This document shows, piece by piece, positions 5,909 to 18,758 of a stretch of DNA of 64,000 nt. A program made the position numbers and the translations under genes. The notes below the pieces were generated by a model. The model was not told where the DNA came from. It worked only from the letters and a program-made list of their open reading frames with translations, and searched no databases. Source of the DNA: Spirochaetia bacterium (GTDB lineage Bacteria; Spirochaetota; Spirochaetia; DSM-2461). Location: positions 352,001 through 416,000 of the forward strand of contig OY764216.1 in NCBI GenBank assembly GCA_963668315.1, read 5' to 3'. Each line of letters opens with the position of its first letter. The first letter of the stretch is position 1.

Positions 5909-5914
5909 TCTCTA

Positions 5915-5943
5915 TTTCTACCATGAAATCGGCCAAAACACAA
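5915..5943 (-). promoter_or_regulatory. Predicted leaderless promoter for murE (TTGTGT-17-TAGAAA with extended TG)
   Basis: -10 ends 6 nt before ATG 5908; no SD upstream. Confidence 0.4.
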
Positions 5944-6076
5944 GGAAAGCCTTACATCCGACACGTATATTCCGCACCAACGCCGGGATTGGGGGGCTTC
6001 CCCCTCAGGGGGAACCGGGCCGCCGCTTGTACTCCTCGGCCGGCGAGCCGCCCTGCGGGGTGGCCGCTCTGTCCCT

Positions 6077-6159
6077 GCCCCGGACGCATGGGCGAGCAGC
6101 AAACCGGGCACGGTTTGTGACCAGCCCCGGACGCATGGGCGAGCAGCAAACCGGGCACG
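6077..6159. repeat. Two identical 36-bp palindromic direct repeats (REP-like) separated by 11 bp
   Basis: GCCCCGGACGCATGGGCGAGCAGCAAACCGGGCACG at 6077-6112 and 6124-6159; each has a CCCGG...CCGGG terminal stem. Confidence 0.9.
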
Positions 6160-6211
6160 TATGGATTTTCCGGAAGAACGGGGCTATAGTATAATAAAAG
6201 AAGGATCACCA

Positions 6212-6910
6212 ATGAAACTTCTCAAACCCCGGGTTTATCTGTTCCTCACCCTCTTGATCGGTGTCACGGCACTCCTGCTTGTTCTGACCCTGAAAAGGCC
6301 GGCGACACCGGAACCCGACCTCCTCGGCATCATTCTCTGGACAATCGTCGCCGTATTGAGCGAATCCCTGTCCGTGTACTACGTTAACGGAACGTTCTTC
6401 GTCTCCCCCATCGAAGCGGTCTTCTATGCCGCCTACCTCTCCTGCGGCCCCCTCACAGCGGCCGTTTCCATCTCCCTGACGTTTCTCCTGATCGTGACCC
6501 GAGACGAAAACCGCTACCGCCACATATTCAACACTCCCCTCCGGTATATTCTCTTCAATATCTTCCACTTCATGCTCATCATGCTTATCCTTGACGGCTT
6601 TCTTACTCTCTCCCAAGCCCTTCTCCCCTCCCTGCGGATTCTACCGGTCCTTGCGGCGGCCCCCCTCTTCTTCACTCTGTCCTGCCTGATTAACGCCGCC
6701 CTGTACAAGGTGGAAGACGGCGAATCTTTTACCGCCGCCTTCAAAGAGATGTTTGATCCCTATTACCAGACAGCCTTTCCCGCCAGCCTGGCGGCAGTCA
6801 TAATCGGATTCGCCTATCTGCGGTACGGACTGCTTTCCATCCTCATCATGATCACTCCCCTCCTCGTTACCCTGATTACGATTAAAGCCCAGGTACGGGA
6901 CAGCCGATGA
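6212..6910 (+). CDS. Integral membrane protein resembling a stand-alone MASE-type sensor module
   Basis: About 7 TM segments; 'SESLSV..', 'GPLTAA', 'HIFNTP..ILFN' recall the membrane N-terminus of Firmicutes HD-GYP proteins; TATAAT 6190-6195 and AAGGA RBS before ATG 6212. Confidence 0.7.
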   Translation: MKLLKPRVYLFLTLLIGVTALLLVLTLKRPATPEPDLLGIILWTIVAVLSESLSVYYVNGTFFVSPIEAVFYAAYLSCGPLTAAVSISLTFLLIVTRDENRYRHIFNTPLRYILFNIFHFMLIMLILDGFLTLSQALLPSLRILPVLAAAPLFFTLSCLINAALYKVEDGESFTAAFKEMFDPYYQTAFPASLAAVIIGFAYLRYGLLSILIMITPLLVTLITIKAQVRDSR

Positions 6911-8748
6911 TACTCCTTCTGGTGCTCTACACATCACTGCCCGTTCTTCTCACAGCCCTATCCATCGGAAATACAGGCACAGCCTTCTACGGCGGATTGG
7001 GCCTCTTTCTTTTACAGACAACGGCGGAGGTCCTCATTTTCCGGTCGAGAAACAGACGCCGGCTCATTCCGGGAGCGGTTCTCTTTTTTACCATCCTAGC
7101 AGGAGCCGTTACTGTTGCCGCCATGAGACTTGACCCGTCCTATCTGCTCCTTCTCCTAGACCTCTATCCCGGCCCTCTGCTTACGGTGTCCTATGTCATT
7201 ATCTACAAGATTTCCCGTCCCCGGGACTTCGGGAAGATTTCCCCGGGATTCAACCGCATCATCATCCTCCTTATTTCCTACGCCGCCTTGCTCCTCATGC
7301 TCCGGTTCCGCAGGATAATTACGGCAACCCCTGCCCCCTCCGTCCGGGATATATTCTTCGCCTTCTACGGAGCCGTGAATCTCCTCCCCCCCATCTACTT
7401 TCTCAGGACGCTGAGAGACAGCTCCCTCACGCGGATTTACAGAAAAGAAGGGAGGATATGGCTCCGGAACGAGGAGATAACCTCCCTTTTCAGCCGGACG
7501 GAGCTCTCCCTCCTGAACCGGGCGTTCAAAGGAGACGGCCGGATTCTCTGCCGGGATCTGGTAGAGGATCTAAACGGCGGGGAGTCTCCGGGAAAATATC
7601 TCTGCCGACCGGGAGAGTGCAAGGCATCCCTCTGCCCGGCCTATGCCGCCATCTACCGCCATATAAAAAGCTTAGACAGGAAAATGGAGAATCTGGGCCT
7701 CGGCATGCTTATGCCCCCGGAAAATAAAAGGGATATCATAACGGAGGGCTGGCTTTTTATCAGGAACAAGGAAGTTCGGATAATGAGAAAACGTTCCTTT
7801 CCCCTGAAGATTCCCGCCGCATACAGCCCGGAGAACAAAACGGAAAAAAGTAAGTTCAGCGCGGCTCTCCCTTTACTTCTCGCCATAGCTTTCACCGGAG
7901 CCTTTGCCCTCTGCTCAGAAGGATTATCCCTGGCCGGTCTCCTTCCGGCACCTCAGCTGCTTTTCCCCCTCACACTTACCACGGCATGCTGTCTGCTTTG
8001 TCCCCTGATGGGACAGCCGAAATGGTCACGGTTCATCCCCACATTGATCCTCCCGCTCCTTTCCTTAAGCCTTATCGGCCCGGCGGGGGAAGCCCAGGCC
8101 CTCTTCCTCTCACTGAAGTCAATCGTCCTATTCATCATCTGCTTTCTAATCCGATTTCCCGCTCTTGAGACTCAGCTCGATTCGGCCCTGCTAAAAGAGC
8201 AAGCTCCCAACGCCCTTTTCTGGCTTATCTGGTTCTACATGATCCTTCTCTCCCTTTTCATTGATCCCCTTTTCACCGATGCGTCGCTTCTCCGAAACAG
8301 CGAAGCTCTGCCCCCGAGCCCTCCGGTTTCGGAACGGCTTCTGCTCTTTCTTCTCTTTGCCCTTTCGGCCGGTTTTTTCAGTTTGTCCCGTAAGGCACTT
8401 ATCGTAAAACAGGAGAAGATTGAATTTAACGGCCGGGTTCTGCCCGAAGGACTGGGGAAAACGGACAGAATAATTTTTCGGGAGTTTATTCAGCGGCGAA
8501 GGCGGCCTTTACACTGCTATGAGATTCTCGAACTGATCAGCCCGGGGAAAAAAGCAAACAGCGGCGATGACTGCAAGCCCAGCTCCTGCCCGTCTTATCA
8601 GAAGATCTACAAAAGAATCCAGACCATAAGAAAATATCTCCAGACAACGGGAATCGGCACGATAGCCAGCCCGGAACGCAAAGTCTCCTCTCACAAGGAG
8701 GGATGGCGCCTGATCCTGTTCGATGACGTTTTCATAAAAAACGATTAA
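6907..8748 (+). CDS. Membrane protein with two tandem [multi-TM + Cys-containing OmpR-like winged-helix] units; putative membrane-tethered regulator
   Basis: ATGA overlap with upstream gene; internal duplication 'C..CKxSxCPxY..IY+xI..++...GxG...PExK...EGW' at ~7435-7785 and ~8398-8742. Confidence 0.7.
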   Translation: MILLLVLYTSLPVLLTALSIGNTGTAFYGGLGLFLLQTTAEVLIFRSRNRRRLIPGAVLFFTILAGAVTVAAMRLDPSYLLLLLDLYPGPLLTVSYVIIYKISRPRDFGKISPGFNRIIILLISYAALLLMLRFRRIITATPAPSVRDIFFAFYGAVNLLPPIYFLRTLRDSSLTRIYRKEGRIWLRNEEITSLFSRTELSLLNRAFKGDGRILCRDLVEDLNGGESPGKYLCRPGECKASLCPAYAAIYRHIKSLDRKMENLGLGMLMPPENKRDIITEGWLFIRNKEVRIMRKRSFPLKIPAAYSPENKTEKSKFSAALPLLLAIAFTGAFALCSEGLSLAGLLPAPQLLFPLTLTTACCLLCPLMGQPKWSRFIPTLILPLLSLSLIGPAGEAQALFLSLKSIVLFIICFLIRFPALETQLDSALLKEQAPNALFWLIWFYMILLSLFIDPLFTDASLLRNSEALPPSPPVSERLLLFLLFALSAGFFSLSRKALIVKQEKIEFNGRVLPEGLGKTDRIIFREFIQRRRRPLHCYEILELISPGKKANSGDDCKPSSCPSYQKIYKRIQTIRKYLQTTGIGTIASPERKVSSHKEGWRLILFDDVFIKND

Positions 8749-8865
8749 ACCGCTCCGAAAACAACTCGTTTCCGTACGATTTCCTGCCCCTCCGACTTGT
8801 TTTTCAAGGGATGATAGGAAACCGGTGCTATGTTGGAAACAGAAATAGTACAAGGCGGTTTAGTT

Positions 8866-10257
8866 ATGAATAAAAAGAAATCCAGCTTAATCCTCGCCAT
8901 TACAGGGGCTTTCTTCCTGGCCGGCTGCCCCGACGGAACATCGACCACGGAACAGCCGGAGCAGAACAATAGCGGCGAGATCACAGACATAACCGAGGAA
9001 AACATTAAAGATATGATTGTTCTTTTTCAGGAATGCACGGAGTGTAAAGAAGTTCATGACGATGCACTCGTCCCCGGTTCGGGAGTGGCCTACAATCAGA
9101 CGACAGAAACCCTTACTTACACCAGCTACGATATATCGGGGCTCTCCTTTAACACGACCGGATTCCAGACTCTCTCGGGAACCGTCTCCCTAAACGGCCC
9201 CGGAGGGGATCTGGCGTTCGACCTGACGGTTACGGGCGCCGTAACCTGGCATATTCAGTTTATCCTGGAAGACTCGAATCCCCTGACTGTCACCATTAAC
9301 GGCACGGTATATAAGATCGATTTTTACGTGGAAGAAGAACCGCAAGAGATGCCGGAGAACTGGTACAACGGTAACGAGGCCCATACGAGCTCGGTGGTTC
9401 ATACGCCCCGCTGGCCCGACGTAAGCCAAAGGATCAGCGTTCCCTCCGACAGCGCCTATTGCTCGGCTTCAAGCGGAGAAGCCCTGGTAGCAAGCGAAAC
9501 CCCCTACGCTGCGGATTTTTCCTACAACGGAAAATCCTACCCCTTCTCCTGCAAGGGATGGGCCGATGTCAATTCCTCCGGTCCGGGAAACGTCTCCATG
9601 CAAGCCGGCTCCCGGCTGAACGTGACGGGCATAAACTTTCTCAACGCCTCTTCGGACATGGAATACCAGGCCTTCGGAACGGCGTTCTATGACGCCTACT
9701 TCTCCGTCCTCTCGGACAATCCGGAAACAACCCGGGTAAAGATGACCTTCTCCGTTTCCTCCGGAGCGCACCTGACCTACTCCATTGACGAAACGAACCA
9801 TTACGCCACGTCCTTCACGTCCTTGACCGCCGACGCCGATATTTACAGAATGGCCTGGAGGAACAGAGAGACGGGCGGCTACTGGTGGGGACCGACGGAC
9901 CACATCGCCGGCGGGGGCTCCGGGGAAGCGGCCGGTTACGCCGTCATAGGATTTACCGATTATTACGGGGGGAGGGGCACGGGAATGTTTCAGGGGCAGA
10001 TAGAGGCCGACAGCGATGACGTCACCGTTACGGGAACGGAAGTCCTGACCTGCGTAATTACCCCCGAAACGGAAATGTTCAGCCTCAGCCTGAGCATCAT
10101 GGCCCGCTCGATTTCGGAATTCACGGGCATACACACCGGCCTGGAAGGGGAAGCCGTAGCAGTTTGCGAAAACGCCGAAATGTCCTACACCTATACAGCC
10201 GTCGATCCGGACCACCCCGATGCGAACATTACCGTAAAGTTCTACCCCGCCCCCTGA
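8866..10257 (+). CDS. Lipoprotein of unknown function (Thr/Ser-rich, beta-rich)
   Basis: 'MNKKKSSLILAITGAFFLAG|C' lipobox; AGGCGG RBS-like sequence before ATG 8866. Confidence 0.8.
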   Translation: MNKKKSSLILAITGAFFLAGCPDGTSTTEQPEQNNSGEITDITEENIKDMIVLFQECTECKEVHDDALVPGSGVAYNQTTETLTYTSYDISGLSFNTTGFQTLSGTVSLNGPGGDLAFDLTVTGAVTWHIQFILEDSNPLTVTINGTVYKIDFYVEEEPQEMPENWYNGNEAHTSSVVHTPRWPDVSQRISVPSDSAYCSASSGEALVASETPYAADFSYNGKSYPFSCKGWADVNSSGPGNVSMQAGSRLNVTGINFLNASSDMEYQAFGTAFYDAYFSVLSDNPETTRVKMTFSVSSGAHLTYSIDETNHYATSFTSLTADADIYRMAWRNRETGGYWWGPTDHIAGGGSGEAAGYAVIGFTDYYGGRGTGMFQGQIEADSDDVTVTGTEVLTCVITPETEMFSLSLSIMARSISEFTGIHTGLEGEAVAVCENAEMSYTYTAVDPDHPDANITVKFYPAP

Positions 10258-10266
10258 GAATTCCCC

Positions 10267-10300
10267 GGCGGGAGCCCCTCCTCCGGGTTCCCCGCCATTT
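10267..10300 (+). terminator. GC-rich hairpin after lipoprotein gene, probable terminator
   Basis: GGCGGGAGCCC...GGGTTCCCCGCC followed by a short ATTT tail. Confidence 0.5.
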
Positions 10301-10327
10301 GACACAACCCCCGGGAAATAATAAAAT
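10299..10327 (+). promoter_or_regulatory. Near-consensus sigma70 promoter TTGACA-17-TAAAAT
   Basis: TTGACA 10299-10304, TAAAAT 10322-10327; implies ATG 10338 start with a very short, SD-less leader. Confidence 0.75.
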
Positions 10328-14644: not shown

Positions 14645-16126
14645 ATGCCAGCTGCTCAATTACACGAAAAAGTCAAGAAAGCGATAAGACTCTCTTTTCC
14701 TCTTACCATAACATCTTACAAGCTCCCCCGGGAGACGGAGGAGCAGCTGGAAGAAATACTGGGGATGTATCTGAGAGAATTGGGTCTTGAGGATTACAAG
14801 GATCCTCTGGCTTACTGCATGAAAGAGCTGGCGGTAAACGCGAAAAAAGCCAACACCAAGCGGGTCTATTTCGAAGAGAGAGATCTGGACATAGGCGACA
14901 AGATCGATTACCAGAGAGGGATGGTGGACTTCAAAGAGGAAACCCTGAGCAATCTGGACCACTACCTTACTCTACAGAAAGAGAAAGGGTACTATATCAA
15001 GTTTACCTTCACCGTCGCCGGCGGCATGTTCAAACTGACCATCAGGAATAATGTGGAAATCAACCGGACCGAGCAGATGAGAGTGTACGACAGAATCGCC
15101 CGGGCCCGGGCCTTCAACTCTCTGGAAGAGGCCTTCGCCGAAGTTCTCGACGATTCGGAAGGAGCCGGACTGGGTATCGTCATACTGGTCCTCATGCTCA
15201 AAAAGATGGGCTTTGACGAGGAAGCCTTCGAAATCGACGGAGAGGGGGGCGAAACCGTCGCTTCGCTGCTCATTCCTCTGACGGGCGAGCGCTACTCCGC
15301 TCTGGACACCATTGTTGACGAAATCGTCGGCGCCATAGACAAACTGCCCCAGTTCCCTGAAAACATAACGGAAGTGCAGCGCCTTATCAATGATCCCGAT
15401 TCTGAGATAGAAGATATCGCCCGTCGCATCAATTCCGACCCGGCTCTGGCGGCGGACCTTCTCAAAACCGTCAATTCCGCCCAGTTTATGCTGCCCAACA
15501 GGGTCAGCAATATTCCCGATGCGGTCATGCTCCTGGGATTCCGGGGAATAAAGAATATGCTCTACTCCTACGGAACGGAGAAAATCCTCAATATATCCGA
15601 TCATGAGAGCTATATGTGGGACCATGCCCACCGGGTGGGATTTTACGCCTACACCCTGGCCCGTAACATTACCAAGAAAAAAGATGTCATTGACGACGCC
15701 TACCTGGGAGGAATTCTCCACGACATAGGATTGATAGTCCTTCAGGGAATCCGTCCGGAGCTGATCGAGCATATCCGTGACTTCTCCGTGGAAAAAGGCC
15801 TTTCCGCCCAGCTACTGGAAGATATGGCCGCCGGATACAACCATTCGGAAGTGGGATCGCGGATCGCGGAAAAATGGAATTTTCCCCCCTCCCTGGTGGA
15901 TGCGATCAGATACCATCATGTTCCCCTCCAGTGCCGTTCACAGAACAAGGCCGTTGTCTACTGCATATACCTGGCGAACTGCCTGGCCAACATAGAGACG
16001 GGCTCCTACTCCTTTGAACAGCTGGAGAAAAAGATTCTGGATCTGTTCAAAATAAGCAATGAAAGCCGGTTTACCGAACTGCTGAATCGCCTGTCTGCCG
16101 ATTATGAAGCGGAAAGAAAACTCTAA
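14645..16126 (+). CDS. HDOD domain protein with N-terminal HATPase_c-like domain
   Basis: N-terminal 'KELAVNA..N', 'GAGLG'; C-terminal 'LPQFP', 'DPALAADLLKTVNSA', 'LHDIG', 'HSEVG..IAEKWNFP', 'RYHH'. Confidence 0.85.
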   Translation: MPAAQLHEKVKKAIRLSFPLTITSYKLPRETEEQLEEILGMYLRELGLEDYKDPLAYCMKELAVNAKKANTKRVYFEERDLDIGDKIDYQRGMVDFKEETLSNLDHYLTLQKEKGYYIKFTFTVAGGMFKLTIRNNVEINRTEQMRVYDRIARARAFNSLEEAFAEVLDDSEGAGLGIVILVLMLKKMGFDEEAFEIDGEGGETVASLLIPLTGERYSALDTIVDEIVGAIDKLPQFPENITEVQRLINDPDSEIEDIARRINSDPALAADLLKTVNSAQFMLPNRVSNIPDAVMLLGFRGIKNMLYSYGTEKILNISDHESYMWDHAHRVGFYAYTLARNITKKKDVIDDAYLGGILHDIGLIVLQGIRPELIEHIRDFSVEKGLSAQLLEDMAAGYNHSEVGSRIAEKWNFPPSLVDAIRYHHVPLQCRSQNKAVVYCIYLANCLANIETGSYSFEQLEKKILDLFKISNESRFTELLNRLSADYEAERKL

Positions 16127-16187: not shown

Positions 16188-18758
16188 GTGAAACACTGGA
16201 AAAGTCATTTCCTGATCATTCTCCTCTTCTTCTCTTTCACTGTCTTCGGCCAGGAGACAGGGCCTGCGTCAGGAGTGCTGACCCTGGAAAGCGATGTTCT
16301 ATCTGAACCGGTGTCCCTGGCGGGCGAATGGGATTTCTATCCGGGAATACTCTCTTCCGAGCCCTGGGAAAGGGAAAGCCCCCTGAAGGTGACCCTCCCC
16401 GATAACTGGGATGAATACAACGGCAGTCACTTCGGTGCGGGAACCTACCGCCTGCATATTATTCTGCATCAGAAGCAGAACCTGATGGCTCTCTGGGTAC
16501 GGGAGAATGTCCAGGCCATGAGAATCAATATCGACGGAGAAAATATCTACGCCACCGGCAGAGTCAGCCCGGACGGCAAAGACGCCTACCCCGGGATGAA
16601 CGGGCGGCTGGCCATATTCCATCCACCGGCAAATGAATTTGACCTGACGATAGAAGTGTCCAACTGGCATCACAGACTCAGCGGCCTGAATATGCCCATC
16701 TTTCTGGGCACCTACGATGTTCTTTCCAGACATTTTGCCAAACTGGCCTCGCTGGATATATTCATCATGGGTATTGCCTTCTCCTTCTTCTTCCTCTATC
16801 TCTCTTTTTATATTAAAAGGCCGGAGAACAGGGTCACCCTCTGGTTCGCCCTCCTCTGCCTGTCCATGGGGATCCGCATCGGCCTGACCAATACATCCCA
16901 GCTTGAATCGTTCCTGGGAGAGGGCTGGGTGATCATCAGCAAGAAGACCGAATATCTGACTTTCCTGGGAGCCGTTTTCTTCTTCGTTTACTATATCGAA
17001 TCCCTCCTGACGAAATTCAAAGTAAGCTGGTTTGCCACCATCTTCATGATCCCTCTCTATTTCTACGCCCTGATTATTATCTTCACGCCCATGACGGTTT
17101 ACTCCTTTCTCCTGCCCTTTTTTCAGTTCTACTCGCTTATCTTCGTTTTTTACCTGATGTTTATACTCTTCAAGGCAAGGAAGAATCCCAGCGGCACGTC
17201 ATACCGTCTCTTCGGAGAGTGTCTCTTTATGATTGCCTGCCTCGTTTACGATGTTCTGTTCTATAACGGGTTCTTTAAAAGGGGTCCCATAGCCAGCTAT
17301 ACCCTATTCACGGTCATCTTTATGGAAGGCCTGTTCCAGGCGGGTTTTCTCTCAAAAATCCTGAACAGGCTGGAGATTCTCACGGAGAAATACCGCAGAA
17401 GCATAGAAGAGATAAGCCAGAGCCGGCTGGAGATTGAGCAGCAGAGCAAACAGCTGAACTGGCTCGCCCTTTACGATCAGCTCACCGGGCTGCCCAATCG
17501 GTATAACCTGACGGAAGTACTGAAGATAGGCATATCGCGGGCCGAAAGAAATAGAACCAAAATAGCCGTTCTCTATATGGACCTTGATAATTTCAAGGAT
17601 ATCAACGATTCGCTGGGCCATAACCGGGGCGATGAACTCCTGCGCCTTGTCTCCGAAAGATTCCAGAACAGCATCCGGAAGGTGGACTCCCTGTTTAGAA
17701 TGGGGGGAGATGAGTTCGCCCTGGTCTGTTCTGACCTGGCGGCCAAAGAGCAGGTGGAAAGCATTCAGGATAAGCTGATTAAGGCCCTTAAGGACCCCTT
17801 TCTCATCAAAGACCAGCCGCTGAAGATCTCCCTGAGCATAGGTGCCGCCTTCTTTCCCGACGACGGGGATAATATGGATATCCTCATAAAGAATGCCGAA
17901 CTGGCCATGTACCAGGCCAAGAATCATGGGAAAAACCATTTCGTCCCCTACAATGATAATATCCATAACAACAGACTCTCCCGCATCAATCTGGCGAATA
18001 AAATGAAGAGAGCCCTGGAAGTGGGCCACTACAAGCTCTACTATCAGGCCCAGATAGACGGCTCCACCGGCAAGCTCTACGGCTTTGAAGCGCTGATACG
18101 CTGGATCGATCCGGAAAACGGGATTGTCCCCCCCGACAAATTCATTCCCATCGCGGAAGAGAACGGCTTTATAGCCCAGATAGGCCGCTGGACTCTCCAG
18201 GAAGCCTGCCGCCAGATAAAGGAGTGGAGGGACAGGGGGTTCAGCGGCTTTACCGTGTCGGTGAATATTTCGGCCTACCAGTTCGGGCTGGACCATTTTA
18301 TCTTCGATTTCCGGGAGATTCTGGAGAAAAGCAAAATCGATCCCTCCTTCCTAAAAGTGGAACTGACGGAGACTCTGCTCATGGCCAACCCCCATCTGGC
18401 CCAGAGAAAGATGGAACAGCTTCAGGAGATGGGCGTGAATATCGCCCTGGACGACTTCGGAACGGGATACTCCAGCCTAAGCTATCTGAATATTTTCCCG
18501 GTGAACTACCTGAAAATTGACAAGGCCTTTATTCGGGATGTCCACAAAGACGGTTTTAACAAAAAGCTCACCACGAGCATCATTTCCCTGGCGAAAAACC
18601 TCGAGCTCGAACTTATCGCCGAAGGTGTGGAAACGGAAGAGGAGAAGAATTTTGTCGTGGAACAGGGCTGCCACATCATTCAGGGATATGTCTATTCCAA
18701 ACCGGTCCCGGCCCAGAGGGCTGAGCTCTTCTTCACCACAGCGGCCGCGATCTCCTGA
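16188..18758 (+). CDS. 7TM-DISM-type sensor diguanylate cyclase/phosphodiesterase (GGDEF + EAL)
   Basis: Signal peptide, jelly-roll 'LAGEWDFY..LPDNW..GTYRL', 7 TM, intact GGDEF with RKVD I-site, 'EALIRW', 'DDFGTGYSS'. Confidence 0.92.
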   Translation: MKHWKSHFLIILLFFSFTVFGQETGPASGVLTLESDVLSEPVSLAGEWDFYPGILSSEPWERESPLKVTLPDNWDEYNGSHFGAGTYRLHIILHQKQNLMALWVRENVQAMRINIDGENIYATGRVSPDGKDAYPGMNGRLAIFHPPANEFDLTIEVSNWHHRLSGLNMPIFLGTYDVLSRHFAKLASLDIFIMGIAFSFFFLYLSFYIKRPENRVTLWFALLCLSMGIRIGLTNTSQLESFLGEGWVIISKKTEYLTFLGAVFFFVYYIESLLTKFKVSWFATIFMIPLYFYALIIIFTPMTVYSFLLPFFQFYSLIFVFYLMFILFKARKNPSGTSYRLFGECLFMIACLVYDVLFYNGFFKRGPIASYTLFTVIFMEGLFQAGFLSKILNRLEILTEKYRRSIEEISQSRLEIEQQSKQLNWLALYDQLTGLPNRYNLTEVLKIGISRAERNRTKIAVLYMDLDNFKDINDSLGHNRGDELLRLVSERFQNSIRKVDSLFRMGGDEFALVCSDLAAKEQVESIQDKLIKALKDPFLIKDQPLKISLSIGAAFFPDDGDNMDILIKNAELAMYQAKNHGKNHFVPYNDNIHNNRLSRINLANKMKRALEVGHYKLYYQAQIDGSTGKLYGFEALIRWIDPENGIVPPDKFIPIAEENGFIAQIGRWTLQEACRQIKEWRDRGFSGFTVSVNISAYQFGLDHFIFDFREILEKSKIDPSFLKVELTETLLMANPHLAQRKMEQLQEMGVNIALDDFGTGYSSLSYLNIFPVNYLKIDKAFIRDVHKDGFNKKLTTSIISLAKNLELELIAEGVETEEEKNFVVEQGCHIIQGYVYSKPVPAQRAELFFTTAAAIS

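Follow-up and report, generated by a model that had tools for sequence, protein, structure and literature searches.

We describe here a block of three genes in a spirochaete genome that would encode a membrane-embedded activator, its partner and the lipoprotein it controls. The window, by which we mean the whole stretch of 64,000 nucleotides analyzed, covers positions 352001-416000 of a 5.6-Mb single-contig genome (G000), and we refer to the three genes as A, B and C. Our model, which we consider likely, is that B binds from the membrane to a 16-bp site (8764-8779) and activates the promoter of gene C, while A, a co-translated membrane protein, acts as the sensing partner of B, with no phosphorelay. 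The parts of this model differ in strength: we are fairly confident that B activates C from the membrane, and we give somewhat better than even chances to A being the required partner of B and its probable sensor.

Gene B carries a module of membrane helices and a winged helix twice in tandem (Table 1). Its two halves are homologous (35% over 68 amino acids (aa), E 3e-12), and the full AlphaFold model (21 sequences; predicted local distance difference test (pLDDT) 78.6, predicted template modelling score (pTM) 0.70) contains 12 long membrane-type helices, six ahead of each soluble domain. Because the helix count is even and the loops are basic, both soluble domains would lie on the cytoplasmic side. 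An earlier note on this DNA had described B as a dual winged-helix membrane protein, and the predicted models of both domains agree with it. For domain 1, the best 14 structural matches (VIA) were all DNA-binding domains of the OmpR/PhoB family (Z 6.7-7.9), and this family was also at the top of the Foldseek results (best E 0.025, probability 0.99). Domain 2 matched the DNA-binding domain of AdeR with a Z of 9.9 and a root-mean-square deviation of 2.2 over 86 residues. These models suggest that both domains have an OmpR/PhoB winged-helix fold. Three observations speak against the model: the Foldseek E-values are no better than ~0.025, the Pfam family Trans_reg_C was matched by 0/42 domains, and domain 2 has three of the family's cysteines rather than four. 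Whole-protein searches gave no clear structural match for the membrane domains.

A profile search of 1.84 billion representatives placed B in a family of 163 proteins, 155 of them at E<=1e-10, with no tail running into ordinary OmpR proteins. Most members have a single module and are 300-350 aa long, and the organisms in named records are spirochaetes (Spirochaetales, Spirochaetia, Marispirochaeta, Sediminispirochaeta). The family is present in 32 of 401 genomes of the class and in 4 of 401 in a phylum-wide sample; among 68 members, no significant relevant Pfam match was obtained. We aligned 175 domain rows from 155 proteins (the top 150 listed plus earlier matches). The first and the last cysteine, which open helix 2 and the recognition helix, were 100% conserved (172 and 173 rows), and four or more cysteines were found in 166 of the 171 complete domains. 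We propose that these cysteines bind a metal, probably zinc, and so cap the loop before the recognition helix. In a quick tree with midpoint root, both domains of the doubled proteins fell on one side of a branch with support 95, which is consistent with doubled B being the product of one internal duplication. The first helix bundle of B is homologous to the membrane domain of the single-module proteins (hhalign 97%, E ~1e-10) and the second weakly so. The motifs NPSG, HRDF and MGYAI-TR-EPRW are shared by single-module membrane domains; their polar motifs are not retained in doubled B, which has conserved membrane residues of its own, such as WLIWFY, E338 and E395. The cysteine winged helix also occurs in other company. 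In P0091 it is joined to a sensor of another type, which has two helices and an extensive soluble region, and in P0116, whose domain is identical to that of P0113, to a GH20 fragment, perhaps as an assembly chimera.

The site attributed to B was found as a 16-bp motif in the intergenic DNA before the lipoprotein neighbours of A-B units. A de novo motif search, from which G003 and the second G088 unit were omitted as near-duplicates, recovered it in 11/11 regions with a leave-one-out score of 231, compared with 72-94 for eight shuffles. When the matrix was built without the window's genome, the site before gene C ranked first in the 5.6 Mb (24.3 bits), and none of the other high-scoring sites in the top 25 lay before a lipoprotein gene. 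In 5 of 13 regions an inverted copy begins 18 bp downstream, giving a 34-bp pair. We hypothesize that the two different domains of a single B chain together read one 16-bp unit, and that the inverted pair of the relatives is read by two B chains. The earlier note had pointed to two candidate target regions, and they fared differently: 8749-8865 holds this conserved, phased operator-like site, while 5909-6211, upstream of A, contains none (best score -1.4 bits).

An exact 15-mer taken from the sites was present in 9 of 401 genomes, namely 6/9 with doubled B and 3/392 others, and in these three it was not ahead of a lipoprotein gene. Since local sites of these very genomes had supplied the 15-mer, it is the distant copies that provide an independent test. 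In the A-B genomes G033, G062 and G088, each of the six distant exact copies is followed at 93-132 bp by a lipoprotein-type gene of the same strand. Five of the six precede genes of the C family, one of which had been part of the C profile. Conversely, the C-family domain was found in 4/301 genomes, all with A-B, and every copy stands behind the 16-bp site. Several points reduce the weight of this evidence. The use of local sites is one of them; in addition, the runner-up site in the window's genome reaches 23.5 bits inside a gene, the six distant sites amount to four independent ones, as G062 and G088 belong to one genus, a looser pattern also gave a G237 site before a non-lipoprotein gene, and in G240, which has A-B, the site is weak (16.2 bits) and there is no lipoprotein gene in the vicinity. 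Moreover, the A-B units are related to one another, and the site might have been inherited together with the protein as one block.

Single-module relatives carry palindromes in place of this motif; the consensus is TAAGTCCCTAGGGACTTA in one recognition-helix class and TTGGCGCACGTGCGCCAA in the class that has R-N-x-K-N-R. Under leave-one-out scoring, the own-type palindrome was found in 10/20 and 6/9 loci and the other type in none (Fisher p 1.2e-4); 13 of the 29 loci had no site, and the background for each palindrome was 2/150. This sorting reflects one clade split, which makes it support for the recognition model rather than proof. Some of these loci are worth describing in their own right. 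At L058:5713-9736 (G088), a single-module regulator lies between two lipoprotein genes, the upstream one with a single-module palindrome and the downstream, C-family one with a doubled-type site, which suggests that two regulators act there. At L051:6216, the gene behind a perfect single-module palindrome encodes a 7TMR-DISM hybrid histidine kinase that includes receiver and LuxR domains; the targets of single-module proteins would thus not be lipoproteins alone. Finally, at L048:1588 and L049:8239 the regulator's own start comes directly after the palindrome, a hint of autoregulation.

We then consider how the site would act. We compared 32 sites, half of them doubled-type (16) and half single-type (16). 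In 26 of them, the distance between the site centre and the best extended -10 box is 37/38, 47/48 or 58/59 bp. The phasing (R 0.78 at a 10.5-bp period) was equalled in 0/20000 random sets; the sites were hand-picked by the analyst, which counts against it. The -35 boxes are poor, with 1-4/6 positions matched in 11 promoters. Helical phasing to the -10 box together with a poor -35 box is the pattern of activators at class I promoters. The phased sites and poor -35 boxes thus point to activation, and binding upstream of a poor -35 box would recruit RNA polymerase.

One alternative is that B represses at this site, or that lipoprotein C is an input (an accessory sensor) and not an output alone. 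The nearest class of sites (offset 37/38) extends to the -35 region, the palindromes at L048 and L049 stand just before the regulator's own start, and ToxS, TcpH and VtrC are described as periplasmic partners in the available text of PMC9214523. However, the helical phasing and poor -35 boxes form an activator pattern, and the neighbouring lipoproteins come from unrelated families, each with its own site, as expected of outputs. We therefore regard repression or an input role as improbable.

Table 1. Features of the A-B-C block in window coordinates.
Feature	Position	Strand	Description
TATAAT, candidate -10 box for A-B	6190..6195	+	read in the sequence; absent from the promoter-scan list
Gene A	6212..6910	+	232 aa; stand-alone polytopic membrane protein; MASE9-like by language-model features
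Gene B	6907..8748	+	613 aa; tandem [~6 membrane helices + Cys-capped OmpR-type winged helix] x2; putative activator
Winged-helix domain 1 of B	7420..7797 (residues 172-297)	+	C215, C233, C238, C243; AlphaFold pLDDT 88.7 from 42 sequences
Winged-helix domain 2 of B	8383..8745 (residues 493-613)	+	three cysteines only: C537, C556, C561 (alignment)
16-bp operator-like site ACTCGTTTCCGTACGA	8764..8779	+	top rank in genome; second inverted copy of relatives absent here
Extended -10 box TGCTATGTT of gene C	8826..8834	+	offset 48 from site, the commonest phased distance; -35 matches 2/6
Gene C	8866..10257	+	463-aa lipoprotein of a small unannotated family; putative regulated output
G+C-rich hairpin at block end	10267..10296	+	-20.6 kcal/mol, z -2.5; without U-tract; not called as terminator

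The block is an accessory insertion, because its site is empty in two genomes of the same genus: in G001 and G002, murE and the gene for an LIC_12708-family lipoprotein are directly adjacent, with no block between them. In G003 the same site is occupied by A, B and two lipoprotein genes. The G+C content of the block resembles that of its flanks, and no paralogue of A, B or C was found elsewhere in the window's genome. Such an arrangement would also fit a 16-bp site that is a promoter element passed on by descent, or a recombination site, and is read by another protein, with A-B travelling with lipoprotein cassettes. In line with this idea, the lipoprotein neighbours differ in identity and orientation, and the complete site forms an inverted pair of 34 bp; some recombinase sites are inverted pairs. 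Against it, the site is mostly limited to A-B genomes and is phased to -10 boxes, the doubled form has a different site from the single-module form, the sites sort according to the recognition helix, and no recombinase-like gene was seen among the listed neighbours in a scan that was not exhaustive. We consider the cassette explanation quite improbable, and retain the reading of the site as an operator for B.

Gene A is tied to doubled B. Its profile gave strong matches in 10/401 genomes, two of them ending at contig edges, and three weak ones. It lies directly before 13 of the 13 doubled B genes with upstream sequence (the window included), mostly overlapping them; among these 13 are two units from each of G062 and G088, the broken copies of G093 and G062, and a pair of metagenome loci. 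By contrast, A adjoins none of the 27 single-module genes and has no match in any of the 22 genomes with single-module matches only. The earlier note had asked whether A recurs with B, and the co-occurrence is strict. The A and B trees, built from nine pairs, have two well-supported groups in common, and A is present exactly where the pocket residues of the single-module proteins are lost. The weak match in G182 was rejected as an A homologue, since the protein is pentapeptide-repeat-like by eye. The A-B unit decays often. B is broken in G093 (L056:6239-7982) and in one G062 copy (L053:12453-14275), and G069 has a remnant of it (L057:6838-7251), without A; these cases weigh against the model.

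What A does is less clear-cut. The protein is hydrophobic throughout and has no large soluble domain; 6 hydrophobic segments pass the threshold used, and the number of membrane segments is six or more. The earlier note had called it MASE-like, and this stands at the level of Atlas language-model features only: the nearest clusters (0.94-0.96) carry MASE9 on 22-46% of their members, and this similarity (score 0.96, 221 shared features) is a lead only, as the family is present on under half of the cluster members. The MASE9 hidden Markov model (HMM; PF20972) gave no match to A at E<=1 in the genome, with a positive control, which counts against the assignment, nor any match among 10 A homologues. 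No MASE9 sequences for a profile comparison were found in 31 genomes or in plasmids, a weak search found no fused longer forms of A, and A is not homologous to the membrane modules of B (hhalign under 2%).

A may not be a sensor at all: B would still activate C, and A would be an assembly, stability or anti-proteolysis partner of the TcpH/ToxS kind, or an inhibitor of B. The gene linkage and overlap would suit any obligate partner, the HMM does not place A in MASE9, and B retains its own conserved membrane residues. On the other hand, polar residues among the membrane segments of A are conserved (E51, S52, R111, N116, H119), and A appears exactly where the single-module pocket residues vanish. 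Its Atlas neighbours carry MASE9, which is described as an intramembrane sensor in the available text of 10.1101/2021.11.05.467447. We judge a non-sensor role to be unlikely, though a serious contender. In the model in which A senses, the polar residues that form the pocket of the single-module sensor (HRDF, EPRW) would have disappeared from the doubled form, which would receive its input from A within the membrane; a membrane-soluble or envelope-stress cue is our guess for the signal.

The earlier note had proposed a three-gene module, and as a fixed set of three this was not supported. The third gene is replaceable (FG-GAP, FGE-sulfatase-like, Ig-like and others) and usually divergent from A, lying after B in the window and in G003; C-family genes also occur far from A-B, behind the same site; and most of the B family is single-module, without A. 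Under a strict rule, 15/38 units (36 loci) have an adjacent lipoprotein gene, compared with 8.5% of genes in the window's genome and 15/120 control genes. By hand count, 11 of the 14 A-bearing units have a lipoprotein neighbour; the other three have an eroded FG-GAP lipoprotein remnant (E 8e-10), an MscS gene, and none (G240). The 41 neighbour proteins scanned include the families FG-GAP, FGE-sulfatase-like, Ig, cadherin-like, LRR, Listeria-Bacteroides repeat and RCC1. By these family assignments the neighbours are unrelated adhesin-like proteins, and we hypothesize that the outputs of the system are adhesin-like surface lipoproteins. The FG-GAP remnant (L052:12595-12780, G088) lies behind an intact operator pair beside the second A-B unit, and in G062 a site matching this operator pair faces the MscS gene. 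Gene C itself has the lipobox LAG-C21, no Pfam or PDB sequence match to its family, and few relatives. Its longest open reading frame (ORF) begins at 8830, with an ATG that falls within the putative -10 box, which makes 8866 the likelier start.

Taken further, the data allow a broader reading, which we hold tentatively. There would be an undescribed lineage of spirochaete activators that carry a metal-capped OmpR-type winged helix on a novel six-helix sensor. One branch would have doubled the whole module for a new 16-bp operator, lost the ligand pocket and recruited a stand-alone MASE9-like sensor, giving an all-intramembrane co-component system over exchangeable adhesin-like surface lipoproteins, with operators and a recognition code readable from genomes.

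Among known systems, ToxR, CadC and TcpP are similar in having an OmpR/PhoB-type winged helix tied to the inner membrane (here at the level of the fold) without a receiver or kinase, and the B domains match ToxR with Z 6.7-7.7 and CadC with Z 6.6-8.4. These regulators control surface functions. They differ in architecture, with an N-terminal winged helix, a single helix and a periplasmic domain, whereas in B the winged helix follows a six-helix membrane domain and there is no periplasmic domain. The four-cysteine insert, the doubling of the whole module and the lack of a Trans_reg_C match are further differences. The closest solved folds to the B DNA-binding domain are those of the OmpR/PhoB response regulators AdeR, BaeR, SaeR and GlnR, at 10-21% identity; B has no receiver domain and the block no kinase. 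OmpR/PhoB response regulators typically bind short direct repeats, unlike the palindromic or 16-bp asymmetric sites of the B family. VtrA/VtrC likewise consists of two overlapping genes for a membrane DNA-binding protein and a partner, without phosphorelay, but its partner is a periplasmic lipocalin-like protein, as far as the available text of PMC9214523 goes, and A is a polytopic membrane protein without such a domain. MASE9 (PF20972), as presented in the accessible part of 10.1101/2021.11.05.467447, is fused to HD-GYP or GGDEF-EAL outputs, while A is a separate protein whose gene is paired with that of a transcription factor. A-B thus works like ToxR/CadC and VtrA/VtrC, yet its architecture departs from theirs, and it is a real variant of membrane-tethered regulators that is apparently undescribed. 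No description of the B family was found in the literature searched, which covered few subscription papers. Current libraries miss this family of transcription regulators, which is therefore probably omitted from surveys of membrane regulators such as PMC10269533, judged by its available text. The family also forms a natural progression from one-component signalling by a single module to two-protein signalling by A and doubled B, and it gives a way into the control of variable surface lipoproteins in free-living spirochaetes. As operators, promoters and target genes are predicted, binding and activation can be tested at once.

The layout of the locus agrees in most respects with the earlier note, which had recognized three co-oriented uncharacterized genes between murE and a lipoprotein gene with its own promoter. 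A, B and C are three ORFs in the same (+) orientation. Upstream lies murE, with Mur ligase domains, and downstream the gene for the LIC_12708-family lipoprotein (NF047780, E 7e-100), preceded by a TTGACA-17-TAAAAT promoter at 10299-10327 in the promoter scan. The TATAAT reported upstream of A can be read in the sequence, although the scan did not list it, and so can the ATGA (6907-6910) through which the start of B overlaps the end of A. The closing hairpin folds as proposed, but lacks a U-tract and was not called as a terminator (Table 1). None of the three proteins had a significant match in Pfam or NCBIfam, and hence no kinase, receiver or cyclase domain was detected, in keeping with the proposal that the block encodes no nucleotide-signalling enzyme or phosphorelay component.

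Upstream of A there is an exact 36-bp direct repeat (6077-6112 and 6124-6159) within a G+C-rich element. Similar copies of this element occur at ~5 other places in the genome, and it is partly kept at the empty site of G001; it looks like a small interspersed repeat, not an operator. Elsewhere in the window, we observed two ordinary signalling genes, one for an HDOD protein with an unannotated N-terminal part (14645-16126) and one for a 7TMR-DISM GGDEF-EAL protein (16188-18758).

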